Assembly (NCBI GenBank): GCA_016748015.1 | Contig: JAAOMT010000193.1 | Coordinates: forward strand, 124,001 to 188,000 | Reading direction: 5' to 3' | Origin: Geosiphon pyriformis uo1 | Taxonomy: Eukaryota > Fungi > Glomeromycota | Length of the DNA: 64,000 bases | Shown: in pieces, positions 5,804 to 61,522 of the stretch | Layout of the letters: every line of letters starts with the position of its first letter | Numbering within the stretch: position 1 is the first letter of the stretch | Position numbers and translations under genes: made by a program | The notes under the pieces: generated by a model | Seen by the model: only the letters and a program-made list of their open reading frames with translations | Database searches by the model: none | Told to the model about the DNA's origin: nothing

Positions 5804-5979
5804 TATTGTGTTTGTTTATAAAAAAGTTACTAATAATTAAGTTGGTTTGGTTTAAGAGATTGTATTGTTACTGGATGATAAGTCTAGATAGAGCATTGGC
5901 ATTTTGATGATTTGTTCCTTTGCAGTGTTGAATATCATAGTCGAATTTGTCCAAGTAGAGTATCCAGTAAGTTATTTAT

Positions 5980-6771
5980 TGTTACAGAGGTGTTTTCTTG
6001 GTATATTTTAATTGTTGATCTTCCATTTTAATTGCAATCAGTCTCTTATGAGTTTTTTTATTTTATGTGTTAGATATTAATGATAATGTACTGAAGGTTT
6101 TCTCTTGATGTTGTGATGTAAGTCTTTTCTTTAATTCTAGTTGTTTTTATATGTTGTGTACTTCTTTCCAGAGGCTAATCTGAAATCTACCTGCTGTCTG
6201 GGGTCTTTTCTGAGGCTATTCTTGCAATTGTCTAATGTGTTTCTCTAATCTAGAAACATGGAATGTTAATGGCCTTTTCACAATTTCCCTAAGTATATGA
6301 TAAAGCTTTTTCAATTTAATTAGTAATCACGTGAATAATCTTAATCAGAGATTATTCTTTCAAAAGGTTCAAAAATGAAATAATAGTTTCATCCACTAGA
6401 GAGAGTATGTGAATTTTATTGTTAATCTTGTAATTGTGATGTTCATTCAATTTATTATTTTTATTAATTCTTTTTGAATAAGATTTTATTTAGATATTTG
6501 TTGCTTCTAGTTGAAGCTTGTTCTTCTTTATCATTAAAAACTATTGTATATATATATAATTATTGTTTTACAAAATAATGTTTTGTAATACTCTATTTCC
6601 ATTATTTCTAAATAGTGCTTGCTCCTTTTACACGATAATGCTTACTGCTATTGTAAAATAGTGCTTGCTGTTATTTGTAAATTATTTCTTTTTATAAATT
6701 GTTGCTGTGCTATTTCATGATTGGCTAATTTATATTATTTATAATTCTTATTAAATTCTTAAACTGTAACA
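5980..6771 (-). repeat. D1 3' LTR
   Basis: TGTTACAG...CTGTAACA termini, PPT GAAAGAAAGAGATAA adjacent; matches 22756-23535. Confidence 0.92.
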
Positions 6772-7085
6772 TTATCTCTTTCTTTCAAGATTGAGCTCTG
6801 TTGAAATTGAAGTTAATTTCTTTATTGAATTTTAAGTTGCTATAATAGTCCAATACTGTATTATTAACTTGTTGTAATTTTTGAAATTGTGAGTTGGTAA
6901 GTTATTCAATACTGTTGATTGTTATTATGTTCATGGTTGGATCCAGTAATACTTTGTGACAATTTTTCAAATGCTTTGAAAATTCCGTAAACTGCTTTTT
7001 GAATTGAATGTACTGTTGGTTTTTCCAATAAAACTTTCTAATTGTTAGATTGTTGCTTTGTCAAATACTCTAATTGATGGGTGAG
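6772..7085 (-). pseudogene. D1 ORF3, C-terminal remnant
   Basis: Translates to …GIFKAFEK/CHKVLLDPTMNIITINSIE*LTNSQFQKLQQVNNTVLDYY, homologous to family A ORF3 CKNVLQNPILQQMKIQYIGKLTELKFQQF…IFDYY. Confidence 0.7.
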
Positions 7086-7095
7086 TTCATGATTT

Positions 7096-7943
7096 TTATG
7101 TGTATCTTATTCTTGACAAACAGTTAGCATTGGCATTTTTGGTATCTTCTTTGTATTTAATGATATAATTGTATGGTGCTAATATTTGTGACTATTTAGC
7201 ATATTTTCTTTTCAGTGTTTTCTTGTTATTTAACCAGACCAGACCTCTATGATCTGTGGTAATATTAAAAGATTTGTACTGTAAATATGTGTCAAAGTGA
7301 ACACAACTCCAGACTACTGCTAAGCATTTCAGTTTGTGTGCTGCATAGTTTTACTCTGTCATACTAAGACTTCTACTGGCATAAGCAATTACACGTTCTC
7401 TTCTATTATCATCTTTTTGTGAAAGAATGGCTCCAAGTTCAGTTCCAGAGGCATCTGTGGCCAAAATAAATTTCTTGTTGAAATCCGGATAAATTATTAT
7501 TAGTGATTCAATGAGCTTTTGCCTAAGGTACTCAAAAGCTTTTTGCTGTGTTTTGGTCTATTTAAATTTCACATTTTTGGATAGTAGATAATTAAAAGGT
7601 TTGGTGATATTTGAAAAGTTTTTTACAAAGCAATAGTAGTAAGATGCAAGTCCTAAAAAGCTTTTAACTTCTGAAACATTTCAAGGTACTGGAAAATTTT
7701 TCACTTTGTCTATTTTTGATGGATCTGGTTTTATTCCATCTTTTCCAACTACATGTCTTAGAAATACTAGTTCATTTTTCCCAAAGAAACATTTTTCTAA
7801 ATTTAATTTAAGTCTAGCATGTCTCAATCTTTCAAAAACTTGTTGTAAATGTTGGAGATGATCTGCGAATTTTGGCGAGAAAACATTTGTATTGTCCAAG
7901 TAGACAACAACGGATTGCCACAGAATTCCAGAGTAAATTACGT
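7096..7943 (-). pseudogene. pol: D1 RT C-terminal half and RNase H
   Basis: YLDN, LNLEKCFFG, LATDASG, IAYASR, ITTDH, NANANCLSR; stop at 7096-7098. Confidence 0.92.
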
Positions 7944-8922
7944 TGTTACTGGAGGTTTTTGTCTCTTCTTAGCTCTTGTATGTTTGTTGTAGTGCTGTTA
8001 ATTCACGACTATAGGAAGTGTTTGAACCTCTGATAACTGAATTTTATCTTCAAATTATCTCCTATAATTTGAATGGCTGGGCTTATAAGTGGAATGGCCA
8101 ATTCTGTGTCAGTTATGTGTGTAGTTACGTTGTAGTAAATGTCAACTTTTTCCCAGGAATTGCTCATCTGGAAGCTCACTAAAAATGTGTAGTTACTTTG
8201 CTGTAAAAGTCAATTCTTCTACAGAAATCTCATTTGTAGGCTACCCTAATGATTGTAATAAGAAAAGAAAAATAAAAAGAAAAGAAATGTAAAAGAAATA
8301 GGTTTTTATCAAGAAAACGTTTTCTATTCAGGCCTGGAATCACTAACAATTTACTGAAATTAGTAGCTAATCAATTTCAAAATGTTAGTTGGGTTTTGAG
8401 GATTTTCTAAGTGCAATAATTAAAGAATTTGGTTTTTCGAATTTATTTGATATTTATTTCTTTTTGTGTGTGTAGGAATAGTTTTAAGTGATAAATCTAA
8501 AATAAGATATATTTTCTCAAAGAAAGAAGCTCTTTTTTTATACAACTTGTTATAACACTATTTCATGAACTTGAACTTTGCTTTTTTCTACAATTTTGCT
8601 GAACTAAAGATACATTTCGGCAAACTACAAGTTATTTCTGCGAACTATTAGATATTTCGGTAAACTATTAATTATTTCGGCAAATTTCTACAAATTTCAG
8701 CAAACTTTTGAATGTTACATATTTTGGGGTATTGCATGATTGATCATTGCAATTAGGTTACATTTGTGTTATGTACAAATTGAGTTATTAATTAAATGAT
8801 AATTTCGGACATTTTGCTAATATAATAAGTAATAATTTGAAATGATAATATATGCTAATTAATGATAAGAATTATAAAGATAATTTTATGCTAAATAATA
8901 TCTCTAATTTTGTCTGGTAACA
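7944..8922 (-). repeat. A1 3' LTR
   Basis: TGTTAC...GTAACA termini; direct repeat of 16836-17815. Confidence 0.95.
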
Positions 8923-9610
8923 TAACTTTCTTTTCAAGACTGAGCTCCATTAAAGTCCAAGTACTGTCTGTAATTTCCAGATAATAATCCAAAATTATTG
9001 AAGAAATTTGGTCTGAAAATTGTTGAAATTTCAGTTCTGTGAGCTTTCCAATATATTGAATCTTCAAAGGTTGTAAAATTGGATTTTGTAGGACGTTTTC
9101 ACAGGTGTGGAATAGGTCATAAAGTCTAAGAGCAGCTTTTAGTTTATAACAACTATTTGTAGGTCCAGCTGTTGTCTTGAATTTGTTGTAGAGTTGTTTC
9201 TAAATAGCTTTTTTTGTGAGGTTTGCTGCTGTAAGCTCCCGTTTTCGTTCATGAAGTGTTTTTCCAATGTAAAAATATCTATATATTGGAGTATAGTCAT
9301 AGTTTTCTTTATTAAGACACAGTTAAAGTTTTTGTTAAATAGTAGCATTTGGTGGAATACTAATAGGAGTGAGCATTAAGTTTTCTCTTAAAGCAAGCTT
9401 TAAAAGTTCTGGCAGATGAATTCCAGAATAACTTCTTGTGTTCTTCTTATATGGGTGATATTTTTATGAATTTGGGACTAAATTTGTAACTACTTCTGTT
9501 TGGGTATAATTAATGTGGTTTCCAGTAACAGTAATGGATAATTCGGGTATTGTTTTTAAAGCTAATATTAGTTTTTGGGATAATTGCTGAATGTTTTGAG
9601 GAATAGTCAT
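8905..9610 (-). pseudogene. A1 ORF3, unknown protein (~235 codons)
   Basis: ATG at 9608-9610 (MTIPQNIQQLSQKLILALK…), YFYIGKTL, RLYDLFHTC; reads through the PPT into the LTR. Confidence 0.75.
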
Positions 9611-9783
9611 TATAAGAGATTTGAAAATAAAAGAAAATTATTTTTGATGTATGGGTTTTTATGTTATTTTTGCTTTGTTTTTGTGAGATTGTTTCTAAAT
9701 TATAAGGAAATAACTATAATAATAAATTTAAGTTAAGTGTTTAAGTTAAGAGGTTGTTCAATGACAACTATTGGTTCTAAATT

Positions 9784-11118
9784 TCAAGGAATATCTTTGG
9801 GATTAATTAAAGGGGAATGTGTACTAATTTGTGAAATTAATGGTTCAGGATTGTTTCTGGAATTATAGTGTTTCAAACAATCTCCATGTGCAACTTTTGC
9901 TAGGATTTTGTCATCAAGTCTTAACTTGTATGATCCGTTGCCTAGGACTTCATGGATAAAAAATGGTCTATCCCATTTATTTTCAAATTTTCCACTCCAT
10001 TGTTTTTCAGCTTTAGTTCTGTGTAAGAGAACTTTGTTTCTGATTTTAAATTCATTGGTAACTGGAGGCAATTTGTTGTCATGTCATTCTTTTTGTTAAA
10101 CTTGAGAGTGTTTAATATGGGTGGCTGCTATTTGTTGTTTTCCTTCCAATATGCTAAGCAGAGTATAGGCTCTTCATTGTAGTGTTTCTTGAAAGTTGTC
10201 TTTATTAATTGGTTGTACTGGATATGTTTCCATTGTGAAACTAATTGGTAATGTTGCTGTCCTTCCATAGATTAGATCAAATGGTGTGTGTTTTGTGGTA
10301 TCTTGTTTTAGTGTTCTATATGCTAGTAACATTAATGGAATAAAGAGATTCCATTCTTGCTCAAAATTGGTTGAGACTTTGGCTAATGATTTACACAATA
10401 TTCTGTTGAAATGTTCTACAAGTCCATTTGTTTGTGAATGGTAAGGCAAAGATAATGGTCTCTTAACATTAAATCATCCACAAATTTTCTGGATTAAATT
10501 GTTCACAAAATGTGTTCCTTGATCAGATAAAAGTTCTATTGGGCATCTATGTCTACAAATAATGTCTTTGTAGATAAAGTTTGCTACTGATTTCATATCT
10601 GCTTATTGAATGGCTCTGGCTTCAGGCTATTTGGTGAGATAGTCTACAGCTACTGCAATATAACAGCTTTCTTGGTTTGTAATAGGTAGTGGTCTGACTA
10701 AATCGATACCAACTTGGTCAAAAGGCTGTCCAACTTTGATTGGGTTTAAAAGTTCTATAGGGCAAATTCCTCCTCTTCTTTGACAACTATTATAAGACTT
10801 AATGTATTCATAAATGTCTTTTCTCATTTGAGACCAAAAGTAATATTCTAGTGTTCTCTGGGTGGTGCTGTCTTTTCCTAGGTGTGCTGATGAAGAGTCT
10901 GAGTGCATGTTATATAAAATGGTTTCTTTTTCATGTTCTTGTATTAATCTGAGTGAATTTTCTGGGTTTCTGAAGTTTTAATAATAAATCATGTTGTTGT
11001 GTAAGAAGTATTGTTTGGCTTGTTGTTGTAACTGATGTTTTTTATCTGAGAACCAATCTGTTGAGATTGTTAATGTCTCCAAATATTGTTTAAGATTGTT
11101 GTAGTTTTCAGGATTCAT
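9784..11118 (-). pseudogene. A1 integrase (stand-alone ORF)
   Basis: ATG at 11116-11118; HHCC, VGIDLV, LLSDQG, NGLVEHFN, GPF-like WDRPFFIHEVLGNGSYKL; no chromodomain seen. Confidence 0.93.
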
Positions 11119-11164
11119 TGTTTGTTGTTTTGTTGTTAATTCAAATGAGTATTGGTTTTGTATT

Positions 11165-12480
11165 CTAATCTTGCCTCATTCTTGAGAGACAATCAACATT
11201 GGTATGAAGTTTTCCTGGTTTGTGGTGTACAATATATCAGTAGTTGGCTAAAAATTCTGTCCATCAGATTTGTTTGGCATTCAGCTGAGTGTTTTTATTT
11301 TGAAGCCATTTGAGTCCAATATTATTGGTAATAATGTCGAATTCTTTAGACCTGAGATAAAAATTGAAGTGGTGTAAGGCCCAAATTACAGCTGCTGTTT
11401 CTAGTTCTGTGGCAGAGTAGTTTTTCTTGGCTGGTTTTAATGTTCTGCTAGCATAAGCGATTACTCGCTCATTTCTGTTGTTATTTAATTGTGATAAAAT
11501 AACACCAAAAACAGTGTAAAAAGCATCTGTAGCTAGTTGAAATAAGTTACTGAAGTCTGAGTAGGCAAAAATTGGAGCTGTTGTCAGCTTTTCCTTGAGA
11601 ATTTCAAAAGCTTTTTGGTGTTTTTCCATCCATTTGTATTTGATGTTTTTAGTAGTGAGCTGGTTGAGGGGTTTTGTGATTTTTGAGAATCTTTTAATAA
11701 ATTTTTGGTAATAGGATGCTAATCCAATAAATTCTTTTAATTCTGTGGTATTTCGTGGAGTCTTGAAGTTTTTGACAGTGCTGATTTTTTCAGGGTCTAG
11801 TTTAATTCTATCTTGGCTAACAATGTGACCAAAAAAGGCCAAACTCGTTTTTCCAAAGTAGCATTTTTTGATGTTTAGTTTCAATCCTGCTTTTCATAAT
11901 TGTTGAAAAACTTTATGCAGATGTTTTAAGTGTAATTCAAAAGATAGTAAATAAACATCAGTATCATTAAGATAGACAACTACTGATTTCCAAATAAGGC
12001 CTTTGTAAACAACATCCATGAGTCTTTGGAATGTTGCTGGTGCATTGCATAATCTGAAAAATATTACATTGAACTCATAATTTCTTTTTTGAGTGGTGAA
12101 TGCTGTTTTGGAATGATTTTTGGAATCCATAACAACTTGCCAATATCCACTCTCTAAATTTAATGTCAAAAAGTATTTGGACTTCCCAAGAGCATCTAGC
12201 ATGTCATCAATTCAGAGAAAAGGGTAGGCATCTCCAATGGTGACACTGTTGAGTTGTCAATAATCAACACAAAATCATATCTTTCCATTTTTTTTTTAAC
12301 TAAGACCACAGATGAAGCCCATGGACTCATTGATGGTTGAATAAGCCCATTGTTAAGCATCCATTGTATTTTTTTATGGATAAATTGGTGACTTTCTAGA
12401 GCAACTTGATAGGCTTGCTGTCACCTTGGTTTGGCATCTCCTGTATAGATTTGGTGTTGAACCAAATCAGTTCTTCTTAA
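11165..12480 (-). pseudogene. pol: A1 reverse transcriptase and RNase H
   Basis: SGYWQV, TAFTT, NAPATFQRLMD, YLND, LATDA, IAYASR, TELE, CLSR then TAG. Confidence 0.95.
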
Positions 12481-13001
12481 GTCATTGTTGTTTTCAGCAA
12501 AAATATCGGCAAATTCTGCAATTAGCTCTTTGAGCTGGCTCTGTTGTTGTGGTTTAAGTTGTTCCATGTTGATTTGAAATAGTTTTTCCATGACAACATG
12601 GTAGTTTTCAGAGCTGGGGTTTGGGTTGATTTTTGGTAGTAAATGTCCAATAATTTCTAAAAAATTGGGAACTATTTGGGGTAGTTCTTGTTGAAAGATA
12701 TTACTGTGAATAACTCCAATTTCTAAGTTATTTAATAAAACTATGGGGAAATTGTTGGGATTGTAAAAAGTAACTCAGATTTTCTTTGTTCCTTCTGGAA
12801 TATAAATGTTTGGGATCGAGATATTATGTTCCAAGCAAATTTGTTCATTGGACTCAAAAATTTGTTGTGTGGTTGTTGGCTTTTCACAAGTGTAAATTTC
12901 AGGGTGTTCTCCAAAGGGTGAAATGGTAATTGGTTATAGAAGTCATAAATCTGGTGAGATTTTTTTTGTTCATTGAGGGCTATGTTTACTGGAACTGTGA
13001 A

Positions 13002-13410
13002 TCATCCAGTTAAACCAAAATTTTGGGTTCCTCTTTTACTTTTTCCCAATAGTTCTCTTTGATTGACTAATTGTAAACCCGAAATGTTAATTAAGGGTAA
13101 ATAAATGGCTTGGGCAATTTTCTTAGCATGTTCAATCTTAAACGGCTTGTCAGTTTCATTATGGAGTATTACTGTTATGTTACCAGTATATCCAGCATCG
13201 ATTATTCCTCCTTTGACATTGATTCCTTTGCTTGCCAGAGAGGACTGGAAGGTGATTTGAACTATTGCTCCTGGTGGGATTTTGAGAGCAATTTTGAAGT
13301 TGATTTTTGTGAGAGATTTGGGTTTAAGAATGAGAGTATTCTTGTCTGAATATCTTAGGTCATATTCAGCATCAATTTCATGTGCTTTTTCGGGTTTTAT
13401 TCCTTGTTCA
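13002..13410 (-). pseudogene. dut: A1 dUTPase domain
   Basis: All five dUTPase motifs recognisable: AEYDL, QSSLASKG, GGIIDAGYTG, KIAQAI, KRGTQNFGLTG. Confidence 0.92.
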
Positions 13411-13539
13411 TTGTTGTTGAAGTATTTGAGTTGTAAGACAGGCTGATTTTCGATAAGATAAATGAGTGTTGTTTCAATTTTTTCTGTTGCTTCAGGTTCT
13501 CCAAATTCAATTTTGTATTCATTACTTTCACTGGGCAAA

Positions 13540-14160
13540 AGAATGTTAAAAGTGTAGTATTCAGAACACCATTGTTTATCACAAAACATTATGCATTCCT
13601 TACATAATTTAATGTTTATTTGTTCTAGCCATTGAGCTTGAGCTTTTTTAGTTGAGTAGGTGTGACTTGCGATTTGATAGTACACTTCTACTTTATCTTC
13701 ATAATCAAATCCAGCTAATTCCATGGTGTATTCAATATATTCTGCTTCTTTTATTTGACAAACATCTTCTTTGGTAGCTCTATTAACTAATGCTATTGCT
13801 AGATCGAAAATCATCTCAGTATTATGAGGGTAGTAATAAAGTTTGTTGAGAGCATTGTTGTATGCTGCATCAAAAGGTGTTTCTCTTTTGACTTTTTCTG
13901 AAATTGATAAAGCATATTGGCAGGTTTGATCGCAGACTCCTCCTCTTATTGCTATATCAATCCAATTGCATTCTTCTGGTAGCATATCTCCACAAGTCAA
14001 ATAAGGGGTGTTGTTCCATTTTCTGCTTTTTTTTATTAGATGACCCCATCATTCTTTGTGGCAAGCCTTGTAGTAATAACAAGTATGATTTTCATATTCT
14101 TCTTCAGGTAAAATGCAGGCTCTCATTGAGAAGAGTTTCTTGTAGCAGTTCTTGCATTTG
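13540..14160 (-). pseudogene. A1 multi-cysteine domain between protease and dUTPase
   Basis: CKNC…CYYYKAC…LTC…CDQTC…helical region…CKECIMFCDKQWC; conserved in families B and D. Confidence 0.75.
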
Positions 14161-14429
14161 AGTGGAATATAAGAGTGTCATTTCTTTGGTTCTAGTTTAG
14201 AATATAGGATGTTCTATCCAGGGGTTTCTGGTTCCTCTGGATATGAGTTTGTTGCAAAATACATTTGCTCAGTTTTTTCAGCCCAGTTAGATGTTAATTC
14301 AATTGCCATAAATGTTTTGACTACAGGCTTTTCTTTCTTTTCTTCAAATTTGAAGACAGGGACTTTCTCTGATTGTTTGTTGAATGTACCACAAGTAGCG
14401 GGTACTCAGGCATGTTGTCCTTAATAGAA

Positions 14430-14760
14430 GAGTTGTAATTCTTGGATTTCCCAGTCTAATTTTGCATTGGCTTTTTGGAGCCAATCATTTCTGACAAGGG
14501 CTTAATACTGGGGCGCATTTATTACAAGAACTTTAACTGGAATAGTGATTCCATCAAGAGTGAACGGAAAATTGTCAATTTCTCTTACTGGAGTCTTTTT
14601 CATGCCATCAGCAGTAACAATTACTGTTTGAGCTAGTTGGTTGACATTTTTCTTTAACTGTTGTATTAACTGGTAGATGATAATGCTTCTAGCGGATTCA
14701 TTGTCTAGAATCAAGCAAATTGCCTTTCCTTTGACTTCTGCTTTAGTGTACATAACAGTG
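14430..14760 (-). pseudogene. A1 aspartic protease
   Basis: LILDNESARS (decayed DSGSAGS), VIVTADG, LVRNDWL. Confidence 0.9.
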
Positions 14761-14899
14761 ATTGCTTTTTGTTTGTTGGCAGCTGCATTGCTAAGCAGGA
14801 ATGGTGACTCATTTGCTTCGAACTTAAAAGGGAATATATCTGAAAGGTTGGCATTTTTAGCAATTCTGGCTGGTGGAATTGTGGTAGGAGTATAGAAAG

Positions 14900-16790
14900 G
14901 GTTTTGTTGTCATGCTGCAGCTCTATCTTTCGAGAGTGCAGTATGATAAAAATCCTGTTCTTCAGGTATTATAAGATAGCTAGGTTGAGTATAATAATGG
15001 GTGGGTCTTGGCTGAACTGAATTTTGGAGAACTAATTGGTTATTTGGGTTGATTCTGTTGTTGTTTGTTGCGAATCAGTTTTGTGGTACAAATTGGTTTT
15101 GTTGAACCAATTTTTGAGCAGGTACTTAGTAATGTTGAATGGGTTGTTGATACTGTTGTTGTATTGGCTGTGGAGCAGGTTGATAGTAGTCAGTTTGATA
15201 TTGTGGTATTGGTGGATAGTAAGCTGGTGGTAGTAGTGGTTGGTAATAAAATTGTTGTGACAAAAAGTAACATTGATTACTTCTATTCTGTTAGTTTTGT
15301 TGTAGCTTCCTGCAATTTCTTTTCCAGTGGCCAGGAATTCCACAGTAATGGCAATTCTGAAGCTGATTATTAGAGAATAATGTGAAGTTGTTTTGATTCC
15401 GTCTTTGGGGTGGTTGATATCTTTGGGGTTGCTGTTGTTGTTGGTTGGTAAAATAGTTTTCGACTTTCTTTGTGAGTTGGTCAATTTTCTCTTCAGCTGT
15501 TGAGCTGGTCTCTCCAATGGCTAAGTTCATGAGTTTTGTACAATTGGCTTCTTCTATGGCCATTTCATATCTCTTTACATGCTGAATGGCAGAGTTTAAA
15601 TCTTTTGGGGCATGTGGGTGAACCTTTTTAATCAGTTTATTCTTTAAACCAGCAATAAATTGATCCAAGATTTGAGCATCAGAATAATAATCATTAGTTT
15701 CAAGTTGGCAAATTCGTCTGAGAAGTTTGTTAAATTTCCCAATATAAGTCATGACAGATTTGGAGGGTTCTTGTTTGATATTGCAAAAATGATTTCAAAG
15801 TGTGATTAAGGTGTTGTTATCAGTGAATTGTTCTAAGAAGGCAGTTTTGAAAGCTGTCCAGTCATTAAAAGGAGTGGTCAAGTTTTCGAACCATTTGCCT
15901 GCTGTTCTTTTGAGAAAGTAGGGAATTGTTCTTAACATTTTGGCAGCATTCCATCTATTTGCATCTTCAGCTTTAGTAACTTGGTCAAGCCATTCTTGGG
16001 GACTGGTCTCAATGTCTTTTCCATTAAATTCAGAGATTTTTGCGATGTATGCTATTATTTCATTTTTTTCATTTTCACTGTTTATTGATTCTTCTTCAGA
16101 TATTTCAGAGTCGTTTTCTTCATTTGCTGCTGTCTTAGAGTGTTCACTTCAATTTTCAGCTAGAAAGTCAAAGAGATTGGAACTAGTTTGAAGGGGTTCT
16201 TGTTGTCTGATGGGACTTCTGGGTAATGTAAAATTTTCTAGTCTTGCAAATTGATTTAAGGGTGAGTTAGGTGTTTGTGCTTGTGCAAATGAAGCTGGAA
16301 AAAGTGTGATAATAAGTGGAAGTTTTAAACTGGTTCCTTGTTCAGGTGTTTGTAAGTGTTTGGGAGTTGTTTTTGGTAGTATTGGAGTATTTGGAGTGGT
16401 TTTTGAGTATTGCTTCAATTTTTGTTTGCTTTTGTTGCTTGTTTTTGTCTCTGATTCAAAATCAATAGAGTATTGAAACTGCACTGGATATGTTTCTTCA
16501 TAGTACTTGATAATATTAAAATTAAGTTCTTGAAAGTAAGTGGCAAGTGTTTCACTATTAAGGTCTTCAGTTCCCAACTGTGAATAGTGTATTAAATTAT
16601 TGTAAAGATTGCTTCTAACTTCTGAAATATTGTAATTTCCAAAAAGATAATTGTTGATGCAGTTTTCAATATATTGGTATACTGATTTCTTGACAACTTC
16701 AATTCCGTCTAGAATGTTAAATCTTTGCTTGCAGTGGGTGTAAATTGACTGGTAATACTCTAGAATTGTTGTGTCTGGTGTGGTCACCAC
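14900..16790 (-). pseudogene. gag: A1 Gag (N-terminal extension, capsid, CCHC knuckle, Q/P-rich tail)
   Basis: QEWLD…, QFIAGLK, CHYCGIPGHWKRNC; same frame as the protease and dUTPase. Confidence 0.9.
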
Positions 16791-16815
16791 TTTGAAGTTG
16801 TTTTTGCTGTGTTGT

Positions 16816-16833
16816 TTCTGTGGGAGAGCACCA
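16816..16833 (-). promoter_or_regulatory. A1 primer-binding site
   Basis: TGGTGCTCTC… 2 nt after the 5' LTR. Confidence 0.85.
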
Positions 16834-16835
16834 AA

Positions 16836-17815
16836 TGTTACTGGAGGTTTTTGGTCTCTTCTTAGCTCTTGTATGTTTGTTGTAATGCTGTTAATTCATG
16901 ACTATGAGAAGTGTTTGAACCTCCGATAACTGAATTTTATCTTCAAATTATCTCCTATAATTTGAATGGCTGGGCTTATAAGTGGAATGGCCAATTCCAT
17001 GCCAGTTATGTGTATAGTTATGTTGTAGTAAACATCAACTTTTTCCCAGGAATTACTCATCTGGAAGCTTACTAAAAATGTGTAGTTACTTTGCTGTAAA
17101 AGTTAACTCTTCTACAGGAATCTTGTCTGTAGGCTACCTTAATGATTGTAATAAGAAAAGAAAAAGAAAAAGAAAAGAAATGTAAAAGAAATAGATTTTT
17201 ATCAAGGGAATGTTTTCTATCCAGGCCTGGAGTCACTAACAGTTTACTGAAATTGGTAGCTAATCAATTTCAAAATGTTAGTTGTGTTTTAAGGATTTTC
17301 TAAGTGCAATAATTAAAAAATTTGGTTTTTCAAATTTATTTGATATTTATTTCTTTTTGTGTGTATAGGAATAGTTCTAAGTGATAAATCTAAAGTAAGA
17401 TATATTTTCTCAAAGAGAAAAGCTCTTCTTTTATACAACTTATTGTAACACTATTCCATGAACTTGAACTTTGCTTTTTTCTACAATTTCGCTGAACTAA
17501 AGATACATTTCGGCGAACTACAAGTTATTTCTGTGAACTATTAGATATTTTGATGAACTATCAATTATTTCGGCGAATTTCTACAAATTTCAGCAAACTT
17601 TTGAATGTTTCATATTTTGGGGTATTGCATGATTGATCATTGCAATTAGGTTACATTTGTGTTATGTACAAATTGAGTTATTAATTAAATAATAATTTCG
17701 GACATTTTGCTAATGTAATAAGTAATAATTTGAAACAATAATATATGCTAATTAATGATAGGAATTATAAAGATAATTTTATGCTAAATAATATCTTTAA
17801 TTTTGTCTGGTAACA
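16836..17815 (-). repeat. A1 5' LTR
   Basis: Direct repeat of 7944-8922, adjacent to the PBS. Confidence 0.95.
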
Positions 17816-17819
17816 ATGT

Positions 17820-20560
17820 TTATTAGTCTTTGGAATGTTATGGGAGTGTTTGTCAATCCAAATGGCATTATATTGAACTCATAATTGCCATTTTGTGTTG
17901 TGAATGCTGTTTTATGCCTGTTTTTTGGGTTCATTTCCACTTGCCAGTATCCACTGGTCAAGTCAAGTGTAAAAAACCATTTTGTTCTTTCAAAAATGTT
18001 GAAGATTTTGTCAATTAACAGTATTGGGTATAAGTCTTTGGTTGTTTTGCTGTTTAGTTTGCGATAGTTGACACAAAATCTAATTTTTCTGTTCTTTTTC
18101 CTTACTAAAACAACTGGTAAGGACCATGGGCTTATTAATGATTGAATTATTTCTTTTTCCAACATGCTTTAGACTTTTTCTCTGATAAAATTATGCTCCA
18201 TTGATGGGACACAATAAGTGCATTGTTTTTCAGGTCTGGCATCTCCAGTAGGAATTTGGTGTTGAACTAAGTTGGTTCTTCCAAATTTGCCATTTTGTGA
18301 AAATATATCAAAGTATTTTAAAATTAATGCTTTTAATTGTCACTGTTGGTCTGGATCCATTGTTCTAATGTTTAATTTGGCCAATTCTTCTGGCATAAAT
18401 TGATAGCATTCCAACAGTTGTTGCCACTTTATTAAAGTGAGTTCACAGTAAAGGGCAATTTCTGGAAAATTTAAAATTTTTTGTGGTATTGACACATTTT
18501 CTAGTTCTGTTCCAAGGTATCCCATGATGGTGTTTTCTGGAATGTATATAAGCTCTTCTATGGTATTTGTAATAGGAATTTTTATCCATTGTGTTTTGTC
18601 AGCTGGAATAAAAAAGTTAGTAAGTCTTATGGAAAACTGTTGGCAAGTTTCTGAGTGGGGCTCAAATATTAAATTTATATCTTTTATTGTTCTTTTTATT
18701 TTAATTTCTGATTTTCTGTAAGGCATAAGCATAATTGACCACTTATTTCTGATTAATTCATTTTTTTCCTTTGGCATTTCAATAAAATTTGCTTCAATTC
18801 CTTTTCTTGTTAATTTAAAACCAAAAGTTCCTCTTATTGTTTGTATCAATTCCTCACAATTTTCCACTGGCACAAATTTCCCAATTTTTACCAATAGTAA
18901 AAAAATTGCTTGTGCAATTTTTTCCTTAGATTCAATCATATAAGATTTTTCTGAATTATTCTGTAGCAAAACCATTAAATTTCCAGTGTAGCCAGAGTCA
19001 ATTACTCCTCCTTAAACACTTATTCCTTTTTTTGCAAGGCTTGATTATAACACTATTTAAATCATTATTCCTGGTGGAATTTCAACTGCTATTTTCAAGT
19101 CAATTTTGGTAATGCTCCTGGATGGTAACGTTGTGGATTGGTTTTCTGGATAATGTAGATTAAATCTGGCATTGGTTGGATGAGCTTTTTTGGGTATTAT
19201 TCCTAAATGCCCATTGTCAAAGTATTTGATGTCAATTTCTTGTTCTAAATTAGTATAGGCTACAAATTTTTCTAACTTGGGACCATTAGGTGAGTCTTGT
19301 TGATTTATTGATTGATTTTGGTACTACTGATTCTCAATTTCCATTTTTTTTGCCAAGTTTTTTTTGTATTGACACTTTTCACATTGCTAACTTTGGCATG
19401 GGATAAGACAGTCTTTGTAAAGGTAAGTGTTGATCTGGATGAGATACTGTTCTTGCTTTTGGCAAGTAGAGCATAGCTGTTGGTAGTTTTTCTGGAATTT
19501 GTCCACTGGGTCAAACATGTTGTAGTTGGCAACTTCATTGGCTATTTTGGCTGACATTTTCCAACATCATATTTCTTCAGTGGTTCCTTTTCTTACTTTG
19601 GCCTGTGCAGTGTTGTATAACTCATTCTCATTATGTGAGTAGTGCTACAGTCTTTTTAATGCTCTGTTGAATGCTGCTTTGAATAGCATTTCTCTTCTTA
19701 CCCAGTCACAGATGAGCATCGTGTATTGGCAAGTTGTGTTACACATTCCTTTTCTGCCTGGCATGTTGATCCAGTCACACCCTTTTGGCAATGGTTCTTT
19801 ACAAGCAAAACACGGTTCTTCATCCTATTTTCCATGTCTTTCTGGGTAATCGTATTTTTCTTTGTTACAATGGTTACAATAGTAGTGGGTGGGATTTCTT
19901 GGGTTTTTATCAGGTGCGCTGCACACAGTCATGGACGAGAGTTTCTTATTGCAAACTGAACATTCTAGTTTTGGTCTGCATTGCTGGTGGTTTTTTTGTG
20001 GACTTACCTGGTTCTATTTGGATCTTTCTTTGCTCCTTCATGTTGGTATGGCCAGTAGTCCTGTTCTTTGGTCATCAGCCCATGAGAGCTGATAAGTTTT
20101 GATGGCTGGTAGGGCTGGATTTTCCTCAAATTTAAAGGTGGGTCTTTGGTTGGTGCTGAGTTTTTGGAAGTGGCTACATGTGGTTGGAATTCTGGCATGG
20201 TGGCCATTATAGCTAATAAGAAGCTCTTGGGTGGTCCAGTCTAATGTGGTGTTGGCTTTTGTTAGCCAGTTATTCCCTACTAATGCTTGATATTATGTAG
20301 CATCTATTACTAATACTTTTGTAGGTATTATTATGCTGTTAATTTCAAAAGGGAATGAATCAATTTCACCATAAGACAGCTTGGTACTTCCATTGGCTGT
20401 TATAATTTGGGATGTCACGGCACGATCAACTTTGAAACCCAGTTGGTTTACTAGTTGAAGCGTCATAATGCTTCCGGCAGATCCATTGTCTAAGATGAGT
20501 TTAATTAGCATGTTGTTTATTTTTGCTTCTGTGTACATAGCAGTGATTGGGTGTTTTTCA
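17820..20560 (-). pseudogene. pol: D1 protease, multi-Cys domain, dUTPase, pseudo-dUTPase and RT N-terminus
   Basis: LILDNGSAGS (~20490); CSVC…CNHC…CFAC…CNTTC (19720-19965); GVIDSGYTG, KIAQAI, RGTFGF (18810-19200); SPWSLPVVLV, DLTSGYWQV. Confidence 0.9.
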
Positions 20561-20885
20561 TTCAATGCTGCTCCACTAAAAATAGCCTTTTTTTCTTCTA
20601 ATTTAAAAGGAAAAATAGCTGCGAGGCTGCTATTTTCCATGACAATAACTGGTGATATTGTTTGGATCAAGTTCTGGCTATTGGTGATATTTTCAGTTCT
20701 AGGTATATTACTATTAATATTTCTGAGATTTAAGTTTTCTGATATATTAAGGTAAGTTGGCTGGAAATTTGAGTAGTTTGCATTTGTTTGCTGATTAGAT
20801 CCTACGTGGTTTGGATTTCTCTGAACTAATGCATTTTGATTCCACATGAGCTAATTTTAAGACTCGAAATGTTAATTTTGGTTGG

Positions 20886-22673
20886 CTACCATGGGCTGTT
20901 GCTGGTAAGTTTCTTGGTTTTGGTACATGGTAAAGTATTAACATGGTATTGGTGTGTATTGATTCCTGGGCATTTGGATAATGCATAATAATTATTCTCA
21001 CATGCCTCGTGTATCATTCGCATTTGACATTGATTAATCAAATGTCCTACACATTTGTAAAAATGGCAGACACGTGTTTCTGTTCTGAAGTCTTGATGTG
21101 ATGAGCAATTATTTTGGCTGCTGCTGAATTCCTGGTTGTGTCTTTGAGATGTTTGATATGTGTTATTTCTTTCTGGGTCTGAAATGAGATAACTTTCTAT
21201 TTTCTTAGAGAGTTCCTCTTCTAATTGTGTTACTTTCTTTTCTAATGTTTCTGTCTTGTTTTTCTCAATCATTATGTTAATTATTTGACTATAGTTAGCT
21301 TCTTTCTCAGCCGATTTAAGGGCTTTGGCAAGCATAATGGCTTCTGGTAAGGAATTAGAGTGGGCAGAATGTACTCTTCCTAAAATGCTGCTTTTTAATC
21401 CTTTAATAAATTGATTTAAAACCTAAGGATTGGTATAGTATCTTTGCTTAATCACTTCAATCTGACAGCAAATTCGATTGAATTGAGCAAAATATTGGGT
21501 AACAGTTTTACTTGTATCTTACTTAATAGTATTGAATTCATTCTGCAGTTGGATTATGGCATTTGAATTGCTAAAATACTCCAAAAGTGTGTCTTTAAAT
21601 TCGGCAAAGCTCATGGGTTTTGTTTTTAAGCTTTGATACCATGAGTTGGCAATGGCTTTCAGGAAGAAAAGTAACGTTTGGATTGCTCTTTGATCATTCC
21701 AGTTATTTGCCTGGATGGCTTTTTGTGATTTTCTGAGCCACATGTACACATCTATTTTTTCTTTCTCTCTTGAGAAATCCATTAATTGCGTGATGTATAA
21801 TGTGGTTATTTCATCACCATTTTCTGCTGGTGGGTTTATTGATCTGAGAGGGGTGAGAATGATATTTTTTTGAGCATCCCTAAAAGTGGTTTCTCTTATA
21901 TTCAGTTCTTTCTCTTGATTACAAGTTTCTTGGTTTCTGGACTGGCTGCTTGTTCCAATGACTGATTTTGTGCTTGTTTTTTCACTGGTTTCTTCAGATT
22001 CTGATTCAGACTCCTCTTCGCGGTTTTCAAACCCCGCTCCAAATTTTGGTTGAAAAAGAGGTTTTTGGAATAGCAATAAATATCCTCCTGTAATTGGTAT
22101 ATTTCTCCAATTGCATTGTTTGAGCTTCTCAGTGTAATTAGAAGTTCTTGGTATTTGTGGAGTTGATATGGATGATGATGCAGCTCCTAATGGGAGTTAG
22201 ATTTTATTATCTGGAGAAAAATGGTAAGATCTTTCTTCTGGTGAATAAAGGCATTATTTTTTTACTGATTATGCAATGTTTTTTTTGGGTGTTTGAGCAG
22301 ATGTTCCTAATTTTTGCTGATTTTTTTTGTGATTAATTTTTGGATTATGGATGCATTTTCTGGTGTTCTTTGTGGATATTGGGTAATTTTCATTGGTGTA
22401 TTGCTCAATTTCGCAATGAATTTAAACAATAGTCGCAGCTAATGCTGTTGTTTTTTTTGTAGTAAATTGAGATAATTCTCTATATAATTAATGTTTTGTG
22501 TTATTTGGTTCTTCTTCCCTTCCTATGTGATAATTTATTCTGGTATTAATGTAATAGATGAGGGCGTTTTCAGCTGGACAACACTCTTCTGGTAATCCAA
22601 AATCACTTTGATATTGTAAATAAAGGGCACAGCAAAATTCAACAACAGTAAGATTAGGAGTTTTTGTTGTCAC
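20886..22673 (-). pseudogene. gag: D1 Gag
   Basis: Capsid AIQANNWNDQRA, QFIKGL, knuckle CHFYKCVGHLINQC; starts at AAA-GTG 22671-22673. Confidence 0.85.
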
Positions 22674-22739
22674 TTTTGTTTCTTCTTTTTTAGCAATGAA
22701 TTATTGCTAATTATTATTTTTTTTTTGATTTTTTTTCTT

Positions 22740-22753
22740 TATAGGGTTCACCA
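22740..22753 (-). promoter_or_regulatory. D1 primer-binding site (different tRNA from families A, B, C)
   Basis: TGGTGAACCCTAT 2 nt after the LTR. Confidence 0.75.
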
Positions 22754-22755
22754 AA

Positions 22756-23535
22756 TGTTACAGGGGTGTTTTTTTGGTATATTTTAATTGTTAATCTCCT
22801 ATTTTAATTGCAATCAGTCTTTTGTGAGTTTCTTTATTTTATGTGTTGAATATTAATGATAATGTACTGAAGGTTTTCTCTTGATGTTGTGATGTAAGTC
22901 TTCTCTTTAATTCTAGTTGTCTTTATATGTTGTGTACTCTTTCTTAGAGGCTAATCTGAAATCTACCCATTGTCTGGGGTCTTCTTTGAGACTATCCTTG
23001 CAATTGTCTAATGTGTTTCTCTAATCTAGAAACACAGAATGTTAATGATCTTTTTGTGATTTTCTTAAGTATATGATAAAGCTTTTTTAATTTAATTAGT
23101 AACCATGTGAATAATCTTGATCAGGAATTATTCTTCCAAAGGGTTCAAAGATGGAATAATAGTTTCATTTGCTAAAGAGAGTATGTAAATTCTATTGTTA
23201 ATCTTGTAATTGTGATGTTCATTCAATTTATTATTTTTATTAATTCTTTTTGAATAAGATTTTATTTAGATATTTGTTGCTTCTAGTTGAAGCTTGTTCT
23301 TCTTTATCATTAAAAACTATTGTATATATATATAATTATTGTTTTACAAAATAACGTCTTGTAATATTCTATTTCCGTTATTTCTAAATAGTGCTTGCTG
23401 TTATTGTAAAATAGTGCTTGCTACTATTGTAAAATAGTGCTTGCTGTTATTTGTAAATCATTTTTTTTTATAAATTGTTGCTGTGCTATTTCATGATTGG
23501 CTAATTTATATTATTTATAATTCCTATTAAATTCT
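22756..23535 (-). repeat. D1 5' LTR (outer end truncated)
   Basis: Direct repeat of 5980-6771. Confidence 0.9.
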
Positions 23536-29128: not shown

Positions 29129-29157
29129 ATTTTGTTATATTTTGGATTGAAATGTTT

Positions 29158-32100
29158 TTAGATTTGTCTCATTTGTGACAGACCATCAGCATTTTCGTTG
29201 TCTTTTCCTTTTTTATAGTGTACTGTATAATTAAATGGTGAGAGTTCTATTTTCTATCTGACATGGTAATTATCTGCAAATTTTTGTTTCTGGATTAAAG
29301 TTAATCCTTTGTGATTAGTGTACACATTAAACTTTTGACTCAAGTATTCTTTTTATTTGATAACAACCCAATAGATAGGTAAATGTTCTAGTATTAGAGT
29401 TCTATAGTTTTTTTCAACTGAACTTAAGCTTCTACTGGTTTAAGCTACTGGATGTTCTCTTCCATTTGGTCTTTTCTGTGATAGTACTGCTTCCAATGCT
29501 TGACCAAATGCATCAGTTGTGATTATAAATGGCTTGCTATGATCAAGATAGATTAGTACTGGAGCTTAAATAAGATTTCTTCTTAATATATCAAAAGCTT
29601 CTTGCTGAGTTTCTGTCTATTCATATTTGGTGTTTTTTGTTTGGAGTTGGTATAGTGATTGAGCTATTTTGGAAAAGTTCTTGATAAAGTGGCAGTAGTA
29701 TTCAGCAAATCCCAAGAATGTTCTCAATTCTGTGAAATTATTTGGTACTAAAAAGTTCTTAACAATCTCAATCTTGTTTGGATCTATTTTGATTCCATTT
29801 TTGCTTATAATATGTCCTAAAAACTTAAGTTCAGTTTTTCCAAAGAAACATTTGGTTGTATTTAACTTTAATCCAGCTTTTCTTAGTCTTTTGAACACTT
29901 GTTGGAGATGATGCAGATAATTATTAAATGTTTTTGAGAACACATTGGTATCATCCAAGTATATAACTACTGATTTCTATAGTAACTCAATATAAACAAT
30001 TTCTATAAGTTGCTGGAAAGTGGCTGGAGCATTCATCAAACCAAATGGCATAATCTTGAATTCAAAATTCCCTTCCCATGTTGTAAAAGCTATTTTCTCT
30101 TTATTTTCCAGTTTCATGGCTATCTGTTAGTAATCATTGTCTAAGTCTAATGTTAAAAACCATTTTTTTCTTCCAAAAGCATCAAAAAGTTCTTGGATTT
30201 TTGGAGTTGGGTAGCTGTTTCCTTTTGTTACTCCATTTAATTTCTGATAATCCACACAAAAGCAGATTTTTCTATTCTTTTTATAGACTAATACCACTGG
30301 TGATGACCATGGACTCATTGATGACTGAATTAGCCCATTGTCAAGTATCCAATTGATTTCTTGACAAATGATCTCATGGCTGGCTGGTGGTACTTTGTAT
30401 GTTCTCTGTTTAATTGGCATTGCATTTTCAGTCTTGATTTGATGTTGAATAATATCAGTTCTGCCAAATTTGTTTTTGCTGGCAAAGATGTTGTTGAAAT
30501 TGTTGAGTAATATTTTGAGCTGCATATACTGTAGTAGATCTAAGTTTCCCATGTTCATTTGTTCCAATTGTTCTGGTTGAAGCAGATAACATTCTTCTCA
30601 TCCATAGATTGTTTGTAATATAATATCCACATATTCACACAATTGTAGAAAATCTAAAATAGTATCTGGTAGTTGATCTTCAATTTTAGTGGTTAAATGT
30701 CCAATAGTGGTTTCTTTTAGTATTTCTATGATCTCTTTTGTGTTGTTGTAAATGAAAATTTTTATGTGGCTGTGGTTCTTGGTTGGTATGTGTAAATTGA
30801 CTAATCCAATTTTTTTTGATTCACAAAGTGTTGCTTCTGCTTCAAAAATCTGTACTTGATCCTTTACTTTTCTCTTTATAACTACCATGTACTGGTCATA
30901 TAGTAGAATAGAAATTGGTTGACAGGTGGAGATAATTTCTCTCTTGTCAACAATTTTTTCCTTTGCCATATTAACTAATACATCTATTCTATCTGTAGAT
31001 CCAAATTTTTGTATTCCTCTAACAGTAATTCTTAATTTTTCTCTGTTTCCCATTAATACTAATTGAGCTAATTTTACCAGAGGCAGAAATATTGCCTGTG
31101 CTATCTTTTTGTTTAGTTCTATAATATAGGCTTTTTCTGAGTCATTTTGTAACATAGCAATAATATTTCCTACATATCCTGTGTCAATTATCCCTCCTTT
31201 GATGTTGATTTCTTTTTTCGCTAAACTACTCCTGGATGCTAGTTGAACTATTGTTGTTGCTAGAATTTTCAGTGCTAATTTGAGATCAATGTATGTGTGC
31301 AAATGTGGTTCCAATTTGATAGTGTTTTTCCCTGGATATCTTAAATCAAATCCTGCATCAGTATTATGTGCACATTCTAACATAATACTTTCATTATTAT
31401 CACTAAATCATCTGAGTTCCTGCTTCTTAAAAAGATCAGAAAGTGCAATATATGTTTCAGAGTTTGAATTGGAGTCCAAATTGTTATTAATTTTGTTGCC
31501 ATATTGAATGGAACTAGAACCATTGTTTTTGTCATTGTCATTGTTGGAGTTTGAATTAAGATTGAAATCTGATTCTGATGCACAGTTGTTGATTGGTTTT
31601 CCCTCTTCTAAGATCATGTAGATCATGTGTGTTGGTGGATTGTAAATGAGATCACACTCATTACAATATTGAAAGTCACAGGAAATTAAGCAATGTTGAC
31701 ATAATTGAGTATTCAATTGCTCTAAATGCTGCTTTTGTTCTTCCTTAGTGAGTGTTAATTGTTGGTAATATTTATAGAATTCTTCTGGATTGTCTTCAAT
31801 GTTACCAAAAACATCAAAGGTAAAGATGTATTCAGATTCAGGCAGTAAAAGTGGGTTATTCTTAATTTCTAATAACTTGCTGGTAGTGGCATCTTTTGCT
31901 TTCACACTTGCCATTCTCCAGATTTTATGTTTGTCATAAAAATATTTTTCCAACTGTCGCAATACTTTTTTCCAGGCATTATCAATTGAAGTTCCTTTAC
32001 ATACCCAGTTATTTATCAGAATGGTATACTGGCATGTCTTGTTACATGTTTCTCTTCATCCAGGAATGTCATTCCACATTTCTTCATTGGACAGAATAGT

Positions 32101-49625: not shown

Positions 49626-50961
49626 TTATCCTTTTTTTTTAATATTGAGCTCTATTAAGATCTCTGAACTCTTTTAATTCTCTTTTTTTGATCATTTCTT
49701 GGACTTTTTTTTTAAAAATTACTTGTGTTTTTTTGGTTTGTAATTTTTTAAATTGGGCATTAGTCATTTTACCTATTTAATTAGTGGTAACTGTGTTTAT
49801 TACTGTATTAAATAGTATTTCTGATCAGTCTTGAAATCCAGCATGTAATCAATAAATAGTTTATGCTTGTATTGTTAGATTGTTTTTTCATATAAATTGC
49901 TTAAGTTGTTGTACTATTGTTGTGTCAAATAATCATTTTGTTTTATCCATATATAAGTTCTAAATATTCAAATGTTGTCTTAAGTGGAAATAACAAAAGT
50001 TTCTTGGAAATTGTTGTATCCACTGTTACTGGAGGTTTTTGGTCTCTTTTTTTGAATTTTGTTAATATTTGTTTGTTGCTAATTTTACGTTTTTTGGAAG
50101 CAGTTGAATTCCCAATAACTGAATTTATCTTTAAATTATCTCTTATAATTTGAACTGCTGGGCTTATAAGTAAAATGACCAATATCTTGCCAGTTACTTT
50201 ATGTAGTTATGTTATAGTAAATATCAACTTTTTCTTAGGAATTGCTTATCTGGAAGCTTACTAAAAATGTGTAGTTACTTTGCTATAAAAGTCAACTCTT
50301 TTACAAAAATTTTGTTTGTAGACTACTCTAATGATTATAATAAGAAAGGAAAGAAAAAATAAAAAAAAATAAAAGAAATAAAATTTTGTCAAGGGAAACG
50401 TTTTCTATCTAGGCTTGGAGTCACTAACAGATTACTGAAATTGGTAGTTAATTAATTTCAAAATGTTAGTTGTGTTGAAAAAATTTCAGTGTAATAATCA
50501 AAAGATTTGGTTTTTCAAATATTTTAATTTTTATTTGAAATGTGTAAAAGTAATTTGTTCTGATTAAGATACTATAGTAAGATACTATAATAAGATATAT
50601 TTTCTTGAAGAGAGAAGCTCTTCTTTTATACAACTTGTTATAGTACTAATCTTTAAACTTGTACTTTTTTTTTTGCTATAATTTTGGTAAACTAAAGATA
50701 TATTTTAGTGAACTACAAGTTATTTTGCTAAACTATTAATTATTTTGGCCAATTTTTATTAATTTCGGCAAATTTTGACTATATTAAATGGTTTAGAGTA
50801 TTGTATAATTTGATTATCTTAATTTCTATGGTACAAATCGAATTATTAATTGAGTAATAATATTTGATAATTTGATTAAATAATAAGTAATAATTAAAAT
50901 GGTAATAATATATGCTAATTAATAATAAGAATTATGAAGATAATTTCATGTTAATTAATAA

Positions 50962-51667
50962 CTAAAATTCTTCTGGTAACATAATTTTCTCCTTAAGACT
51001 GAGTTTTATCAAAGTCCAAGCACTATCTGTAATTTTAAAATAATCATCCAAAATAATTAAAGTAATTTGGTCTGAAAATTGTTGAAATTTCAGTTTTGTG
51101 AGCTTTCCAATGTATTGTATTTTCATTGAATAAAGTATTGTATTTTGTAAGATGTTTTCACAAGTGTTAAATAAATCATAGAGTCTAAATGTTTTTCTAA
51201 GTTTGTAGTAAGTATTTGTTGGTCCAGCTGCTGTTTTGAATTTATTGTGAATTTGTTTTTGTATAGCTTCAGAGGTAATGTTGGTTGCTTTAAGTTCCAG
51301 TTTTCGTTCATAAAGTGTTTTTTCAATATGAAAATATCTGTGTATAAGAGTATGTTTATTGTTCTGTTTATTAAGAAATAGTACAAGTTTTTGTTGGATT
51401 GTGGCATTTGGTAAAATGTTAATAAGGGCAAATAAAAAGTTTTCTTTTAGTGCTTGCTTCAAAAGTTCTGGTAGTTAATTTCCAGAGTGACTTCTTGTTT
51501 TTCTTCTATAAGAGTGATAATTTTGAGAATTATTTTCTATTGGTGTTGTAGTTTTTTTTGAGTGTAATTAATTGACTTCTATTAATTGTTATAGATAAAT
51601 TAGGAAGTGTTTTTAAGGCTAACATTAATTTTTGGAATATTTGTTGGATATTTCAGAAAATAATCAT
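50962..51667 (-). pseudogene. A3 ORF3, unknown protein
   Basis: ATG at 51665-51667; includes ORF 50962..51462 (…HRYFHIEKTLYERKLEL…RLYDLFNTC…). Confidence 0.78.
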
Positions 51668-51829
51668 AATAAAAAAATGATTAACTAAAAAAAAAAATAA
51701 AGAAAATTATTTTTGGGTATGAAGTTTTTATTTATTTTTGGATTTAGGTGTTTCTTGTAATTATTTACTATTTTTGTTTTTTGTGTATTATAAAAAAAAT
51801 TATTGTAAAAATATGTTGAATTAAGTATT

Positions 51830-53206: not shown

Positions 53207-53263
53207 TGTTGTTTTGTTATTCTGTTGATAGATTGATAAGTTATGATAGAATTGTTGTTGGTG

Positions 53264-61492: not shown

Positions 61493-61522
61493 TTTTTGTT
61501 ATATTTTTGGGTTGGAATAGTT

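Follow-up and report, generated by a model that had tools for sequence, protein, structure and literature searches.

A Ty3/Gypsy-like retroelement group in Geosiphon pyriformis with a polyprotein ending at RNase H, a separate integrase gene and a third open reading frame

Overview

We analysed a stretch of 64,000 nucleotides from the fungus Geosiphon pyriformis uo1 (Glomeromycota; contig JAAOMT010000193.1, positions 124,001 to 188,000), hereafter the window, and found that its Ty3/Gypsy-like long terminal repeat (LTR) retrotransposons have a polyprotein that stops after RNase H and a separate integrase gene with its own start codon. This is a real and conserved layout. The reference copy, which we call A1, is a complete but decayed Ty3/Gypsy element on the minus strand (7944-17815). 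Its order is LTR, primer-binding site (PBS), Gag-protease-Cys-rich region-dUTPase-reverse transcriptase (RT)-RNase H, stop, spacer, ATG-started integrase, spacer, a third open reading frame (ORF3), polypurine tract (PPT) and LTR. The copy letters A1, A2, B1, C, D and E are our own and may differ from those of a sequence-only reading of the same DNA that preceded this work. All coordinates are those of the window.

The window consists of LTR retrotransposons that are decayed and inserted into one another; almost all of them lie on the minus strand. Its GC content is about 30%, and CpG is strongly depleted (observed/expected 0.17). B1 contains E, E contains C, and C contains A1. The LTR content of the G. 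pyriformis genome is given as 41.2% (PMC11952901).

A conserved stop separates RNase H from integrase

At all six RNase H/integrase junctions in the window, a TAA or TAG is located exactly four codons past the ADxLS[RQ] motif. In A1, the TAG (11165-11167, minus strand, as are all junctions) lies four codons past NVDCLSR. It is followed by a spacer of 46 nt (11119-11164) with a single G, no ATG and no AG, and then by the stand-alone integrase (9733-11118), whose ATG at 11118 opens a frame different from that of RNase H. The gene encodes an N-terminal extension, the H2C2 finger, the DDE core and an SH3-like end, and is broken by internal stops. At the other five junctions the stop is TAA. The spacer measures 57 nt in A2 (TAA at 53266-53264), 29 nt in B1 (29129-29160), 30 nt in D (61493-61525, including a second in-frame TAA), 64 nt in E (5804-5870) and 5 nt in C (7091-7098), where most of the integrase behind the junction is deleted. 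The start codon is ATG in three copies (A1, C and D) and ATA in three (A2, B1 and E).

The sequence-only reading had proposed that the polyprotein ends at RNase H and that integrase is separate, and a stop does precede integrase at every window junction. It had also placed the B1 fragments from capsid to RNase H in one frame and integrase outside it. The stop counts agree, with 33 stops in 1719 codons in that frame versus 133 and 149 in the other two, and integrase in another frame. The proposed layout with an own-start integrase is confirmed, with one difference in detail: in A2 and D integrase lies in the same frame as RNase H, although behind the stop.

A search with the A1 integrase found 546 homologous proteins of 242-770 aa. 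Among the 120 matches listed, nearly all are 381-453 aa long and 117 have a methionine at the N-terminus, most at the same site. The closest named homologue among them comes from G. pyriformis itself (78% across 37% of the integrase length), and Rhizophagus irregularis supplies several that are intact. With a profile built from 44 integrase homologues, we collected related metagenome stretches and took the best 80 of 536 as relatives (L-numbered loci). The end of RNase H lies upstream of integrase in 58 of these 80, and our counts of fusion and ATG use refer to these 58 loci.

None of the 58 relatives has a fused RT-RNase H-integrase frame; in 57 of them the homologous start site is an ATG. 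Across 57 loci, integrase occupies all three phases relative to RNase H (16/23/18). Spacers range from -20 to 506 nt; stop and start overlap in 12 of the 57 loci, in four of them as ATGA. Four relatives (L009, L031, L047 and L073) combine open polyproteins of 1,400-1,600 aa and open integrases with the same stop. The continuous RT-RNase H-integrase frame that the sequence-only reading had named as refuting its proposal was thus absent from the intact relatives.

Two explanations would make the separation less than it seems. The stops and frame changes could be the decay of an ordinary Gypsy element, and the copies are indeed full of transitions (55 of the 58 differences between the two A1 LTRs) and depleted in CpG to the degree given above. 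Against this, the stop falls at the same codon in six of six window copies while stops occur at about 1-2% per codon elsewhere, and the same stop is kept in the four relatives with open frames. Since no relative is fused, 57 of 58 carry the ATG at the same site and all three phases occur, decay does not explain the stop. The intact relatives rule it out, and we give it virtually no chance. Alternatively, a normal RT-RNase H-integrase Pol could still be made via readthrough, frameshifting or an intron that removes the stop. The 58 loci had been picked by their likeness to free-standing integrases, and we therefore searched for longer proteins as well (659 matches, 120 listed, first 40 examined). 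Some fused database proteins from mycorrhizal fungi (P0124-P0126 and P0131, the latter with a long linker) favour such a Pol, as does the shared frame in A2 and D. However, the ADxLSR end of RNase H is missing from the three closest long proteins, P0124-P0126 (Rhizophagus clarus and Cetraspora pellucida models), as is the integrase N-terminus from two of them; they look like gene models spliced across the stop, that is, annotation artefacts. One protein, P0128, is a true RNase H-integrase fusion, at 44% identity. The nearly equal use of three phases, the 12 overlapping junctions, the two in-frame stops in D and the retention of the ATG in 57 of 58 loci also speak against a normal Pol, which we consider very improbable.

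Translation of the separate integrase

The element may be expressed polycistronically, judging from its sequence. We favour a stop-and-restart translation after the polyprotein stop, with a probability of roughly 45%. Ribosomes that finish the Gag-protease-RT-RNase H polyprotein would restart at the next AUG and make integrase. The restart would take place on the genomic RNA after a short traverse of the AUG-free spacer, as has been proposed for LINE-1. Integrase would then enter the particle unjoined to Gag and would need its own route, possibly packaging via RNA or via contacts with Gag or RT, as in foamy virus for Pol. Among known cases, SART1 has an overlapped stop and start, and for LINE-1 the restart was proposed across a spacer of 63 nt (PMC5972666).

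Junction statistics were calculated on 51 non-redundant junctions, including 36 non-redundant spacers of at most 110 nt. These 36 spacers contain two ATGs, while dinucleotide shuffles gave 19.0 on average and a minimum of 9 in 200 shuffles. The 80 nt upstream of the integrase AUG are weakly folded, with a mean of -5.5 kcal/mol and a z-score below -2 in none of the 51 junctions. The integrase AUG stands in a good context, with a purine at -3 in 42/51 and G at +4 in 40/51. The nearest upstream YAG is positioned anywhere from 1 to 267 nt from the integrase AUG and AG is depleted (70 vs 102 expected), so there is no fixed splice acceptor. The good start context, the AUG-poor, weakly folded spacers, the missing acceptor and the stop-start overlaps, along with the initial methionine of 117 of the 120 listed homologues, led us to favour stop-and-restart translation.

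Several observations weigh against it. UGGGA, motif 1 of the termination upstream ribosome-binding site (TURBS), occurs in none of the 36 spacers, where 0.5 would be expected; this count covers the spacers and does not extend into the coding sequence before the stop. Six of the seven spacers longer than 110 nt contain upstream ATGs, which a scanning restart explains poorly. In several relatives a frame change or an in-frame stop lies between Gag and RT, and because of this few ribosomes would reach the RNase H stop. The motifs CGGA (26 vs 9.8 expected) and TTAAC (22 vs 11.1) are enriched in the spacers, and in one subclade a covarying hairpin precedes the AUG; both would fit an internal promoter or internal ribosome entry equally well. 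Finally, 5' leaders in general are expected to have AUG-free stretches too.

Integrase, and ORF3 with it, could instead be made from its own subgenomic mRNAs, either started at an internal promoter or spliced from the 5' LTR, similar to foamy virus Pol, which is produced from a spliced mRNA (PMC3705302). This would accommodate spacers of -20 to 506 nt within one well-supported subclade, the upstream AUGs of the long spacers and the enrichment of CGGA and TTAAC, and it would also work where a stop or frame change divides Gag from RT. The variable position of YAG and the depletion of AG do not fit it, nor do the overlaps in 12 of 57 loci, which are a pattern of translational coupling; we regard subgenomic mRNAs as the main rival, less likely than restart. 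A further option is that the junction lets ribosomes enter the genomic RNA internally, whether or not the upstream frame is translated. The hairpin that one subclade has immediately 5' of the AUG, with compensatory substitutions in 5 of its 12 pairs, and the G-poor, A/C-rich composition of the remaining spacers speak for it. On the other hand, the window spacers lack such a structure, most junctions are unstructured, and the hairpin itself has no Rfam match and could be a packaging or protein-binding site. Internal entry appears distinctly less probable than subgenomic mRNAs.

The hairpin lies within the roughly 45 nt that directly precede the integrase ATG and was recognised by eye in 14 loci (L031, L047, L056, L063, L068, L073, L050, L059, L064, L075, L054, L053, L040 and L044). 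It is a stem-loop with an invariant purine-rich bulge, and the compensatory pairs were counted in 12 aligned sequences. No Rfam family matched in the six loci searched, and the hairpin pattern had no match in a viral contig collection, in which only three weak integrase matches were found.

Two other subclades showed features of their own. Spacers in the L001-L074 subclade are 74-101 nt long; at 3-15 nt from the integrase ATG they carry repeats of CGGA and a motif resembling TTGA(T/C)TTAAC. In another group of eight loci (L023, L027, L028, L029, L030, L033, L043 and L046), all eight have an in-frame TGA followed by CTA between protease and RT, which we take to be a readthrough context.

ORF3 is a family under purifying selection

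In A1, ORF3 (8891-9610, minus strand) is separated from integrase by a spacer of 122 nt (9611-9732). It has its own start codon at 9610 and 239 codons with four internal stops, extends across the PPT into the 3' LTR, and shares 28% with the intact ORF3 of L002. The ORF3 reading frames form one family: in leave-one-out profile tests, all 21 members outscored their own shuffles. The hidden Markov model of the relatives finds the A1 ORF3 with an independent E-value (iE) of 2e-8. Within the window only family A is significant (iE 0.24 in E and 0.13 in C), and in B1 and D ORF3 is deleted or interrupted by insertions. Database matches to the family comprise 575 clusters (50% identity) and two proteins of R. 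irregularis. Its sequences show purifying selection, with dN/dS of 0.14-0.28 in the four unsaturated pairs out of 12, two of these four resting on few changes.

Of the 30 loci in which 700 nt or more follow integrase, 21 have ORF3 and nine lack it. The conserved ORF3 of the sequence-only reading is thus a real family, only not a universal one. In the TGA-readthrough subclade it is absent from all four loci with at least 700 nt behind integrase. In two loci a helix-turn-helix gene occupies its slot (L021:6546-6944, HTH_24 E 8.5e-6; L040:1524-1889, HTH_24 E 9.4e-4). Because of this absence and replacement, we consider ORF3 an accessory gene. The family has conserved Arg and Tyr residues; based on these and on the helix-turn-helix replacement, ORF3 could be an accessory nucleic-acid-binding regulator, a role to which we give somewhat less than even odds.

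The ORF3 proteins are 120-240 aa long, and the structural model is all-helical with a predicted local distance difference test (pLDDT) score of 92. A membrane-like hydropathy (Kyte-Doolittle mean 1.6) was reached by two of 199 homologues. With no membrane segment in 197 of 199, this length and the helical model, we rejected an Env or membrane fusion glycoprotein. No Pfam family was found with the 21 members or with 30 more proteins, and no match in PHROGs. Foldseek gave no match at E 0.001 in PDB or BFVD, which does not equal a new fold; the best VIA Z was 5.0 and ESM Atlas matches stayed under 0.9. One lead, a likeness to YhcG-N/DUF1016_N, came down to one helix hairpin and weakened from P 0.014 to P 0.14 with a deeper alignment.

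Ancestry of the split

RT-RNase H trees were built with database proteins only, and 20 of the 120 long proteins were omitted for short RT coverage. In the FastTree phylogeny of 143 rows, all 43 split rows and two gene models fall into one branch of 45 rows (Shimodaira-Hasegawa support 98), with P0128, P0132 and P0138 just outside it. The IQ-TREE analysis of a 41-row subset leaves the base open, with two changes needed and one side present in 4% of 200 bootstrap trees. The approximately unbiased test did not reject one split-integrase clade (p 0.319). Among the window copies, A, B, C and D group together with support (98/98) and E stands apart. A single origin of the split-integrase lineage is likely. 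The sequence-only reading had called it a distinct lineage. The absence of fusion in 58 relatives, the ORF3 family and the lack of a description in the literature searched support this, and the single origin was found by FastTree but not recovered by IQ-TREE.

Comparison with known elements

A1 resembles Ty3/Gypsy elements (Metaviridae) in its direct LTRs with TG...CA ends, PBS, PPT, short target-site duplication and the order Gag-protease-RT-RNase H-integrase, and the best solved relative of its integrase is that of Ty3 (E 5e-51). The difference is that integrase here lies outside Pol (none fused in 58 relatives, a stop at six of six window junctions) and that a third, non-Env reading frame follows. 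In the accessible parts of PMC3248453, PMC2864245, PMC12440569 and PMC11673190, integrase is placed within Pol. We found no description of a Gypsy layout with a stand-alone integrase in the literature; one may exist in Repbase or GyDB entries, in supplements or in subscription papers, which the search did not reach. The accessible portions of PMC6431247 and bioRxiv 10.1101/2021.03.30.436303 do not mention it. The layout is apparently an undescribed variant of Ty3/Gypsy in the literature searched. Chromodomain PF00385 was found neither in the A1 integrase nor among the 120 integrase homologues listed; with no chromodomain at the integrase C-terminus, we rejected membership in the chromoviruses.

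Ginger1 transposases are free-standing Gypsy-like integrases of DNA transposons with inverted repeats (PMC2836005). They share with our elements a free-standing Gypsy-type integrase of about 400 aa with an N-terminal extension before the H2C2 finger, and a 4-bp target-site duplication; by eye only, the extension resembles the YPYY motif. In contrast to Ginger1, the gene here follows RT-RNase H inside an LTR element whose LTRs are direct, and it matched neither an OTU nor a Ulp1 domain; on these grounds a Ginger1 DNA transposon was rejected.

LINE-1 and SART1 ORF2 and viral termination-reinitiation (PMC5972666) are similar in having a downstream frame behind a long one, with an overlap or a short spacer. 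However, these are non-LTR elements or RNA viruses, and here the spacers lack UGGGA and the mechanism is proposed from sequence. Foamy virus Pol (PMC3705302) is likewise made apart from Gag and needs its own route into the particle, but there the whole Pol is separated via a spliced mRNA, whereas here it is integrase alone and RT is often in the Gag frame. The slot between integrase and the 3' LTR is shared with errantivirus env and other extra 3' Gypsy reading frames, from which ORF3 differs by its size of 120-240 aa, its non-membrane character, its all-helical model and the lack of a Pfam or fold match.

Anatomy of A1 and other copies in the window

The A1 LTRs are a pair of 980 nt with TG...CA ends and 94% identity (5' LTR 16836-17815, 3' LTR 7944-8922; all A1 features on the minus strand unless stated). 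The target-site duplication is 4 bp, ACGT at 7940-7943 (plus strand) and ATGT at 17816-17819, and lies within the RT of element C. The PBS (16822-16835) consists of TT followed by TGG... and has the same position in A2, C and E. The PPT (8923-8947) is purine-rich. The Gag frame is open from within the 5' LTR across the PBS (16700-16900) and has no early ATG.

The Pfam order in A1 is Ty3 capsid, CCHC, protease, dUTPase, RT and RNase H, then an integrase with H2C2, rve and SH3. Gag (capsid and CCHC knuckle), protease, Cys-rich region and dUTPase occupy a single frame (13008-16835) with 12 stops in 1276 codons (PF03732 E 5e-11, PF19259, PF00098, PF08284, PF00692). RT and RNase H follow at 11168-12615 (PF00078 E 4e-17, PF17919 E 1e-30), with a frame change near 12256.

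Three regions lie between protease and RT. The Cys-rich region (13416-14315) is conserved and could be aligned in A1, A2, B1 and C, while that of D lies past the window end; it has no Pfam and no PDB match. The dUTPase domain (13008-13415; PF00692 E 1.1e-18, and alignment) occupies a place that dUTPase also has in described Gypsy elements of fungi, PosPlaTy3-5 among them (PMC2864245). The third is a conserved region of about 110 aa (12610-12933), aligned in six copies. The sequence-only reading had proposed a Cys-rich region, a dUTPase and a pseudo-dUTPase in families A, B and D. The Cys-rich part was confirmed in the four copies named, but the pseudo-dUTPase was not: compared with dUTPase it reached an hhalign probability of 0.2%, it had no PDB match, and its model had a pLDDT of 40. 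Other insertions were observed in relatives. In L053:2-2443 the slot between protease and RT that holds dUTPase in the window families is taken by a NUDIX domain (E 1e-13), and L031:4940-5716 and its subclade have an extra 260-360 aa after RNase H with an acidic stretch and a conserved Cys/His-rich domain without a Pfam match.

A2 (50024-59852, minus strand) is a second complete copy with 74.5% identity to A1. Contigs of run X1 (54,427) contain family A in many diverged copies whose differences are mostly transitions. Element C (5980-23535) has kept its LTRs, Gag and RT-RNase H, and an internal deletion took most of its integrase and the start of ORF3.

Biological meaning

In the LTR retrotransposons described in the literature consulted above, it is Pol that brings integrase into the particle. 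A large group that makes integrase separately has to translate an internal cistron and also to package the enzyme in trans, and would be a natural fungal system for studying both. The layout also matters for annotation, since gene prediction in mycorrhizal fungi seems either to bridge the junction with a splice or to list integrase and ORF3 as orphan genes.

As a tentative overall picture, more apt to be wrong than right, these elements may be an old, undescribed fungal branch of Metaviridae with a virus-like genome of three genes. Integrase would have been freed from Pol once, translated by stop and restart under the steering of subclade-specific RNA elements and packaged in trans, and ORF3 would be a dedicated accessory protein whose fold PDB does not yet contain. 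The finding bears on how integrase genes moved between retrotransposons and Ginger-like DNA transposons. If this picture is true, LTR retrotransposons and the Ginger-type transposons that consist of integrase only would have a living link in this lineage.

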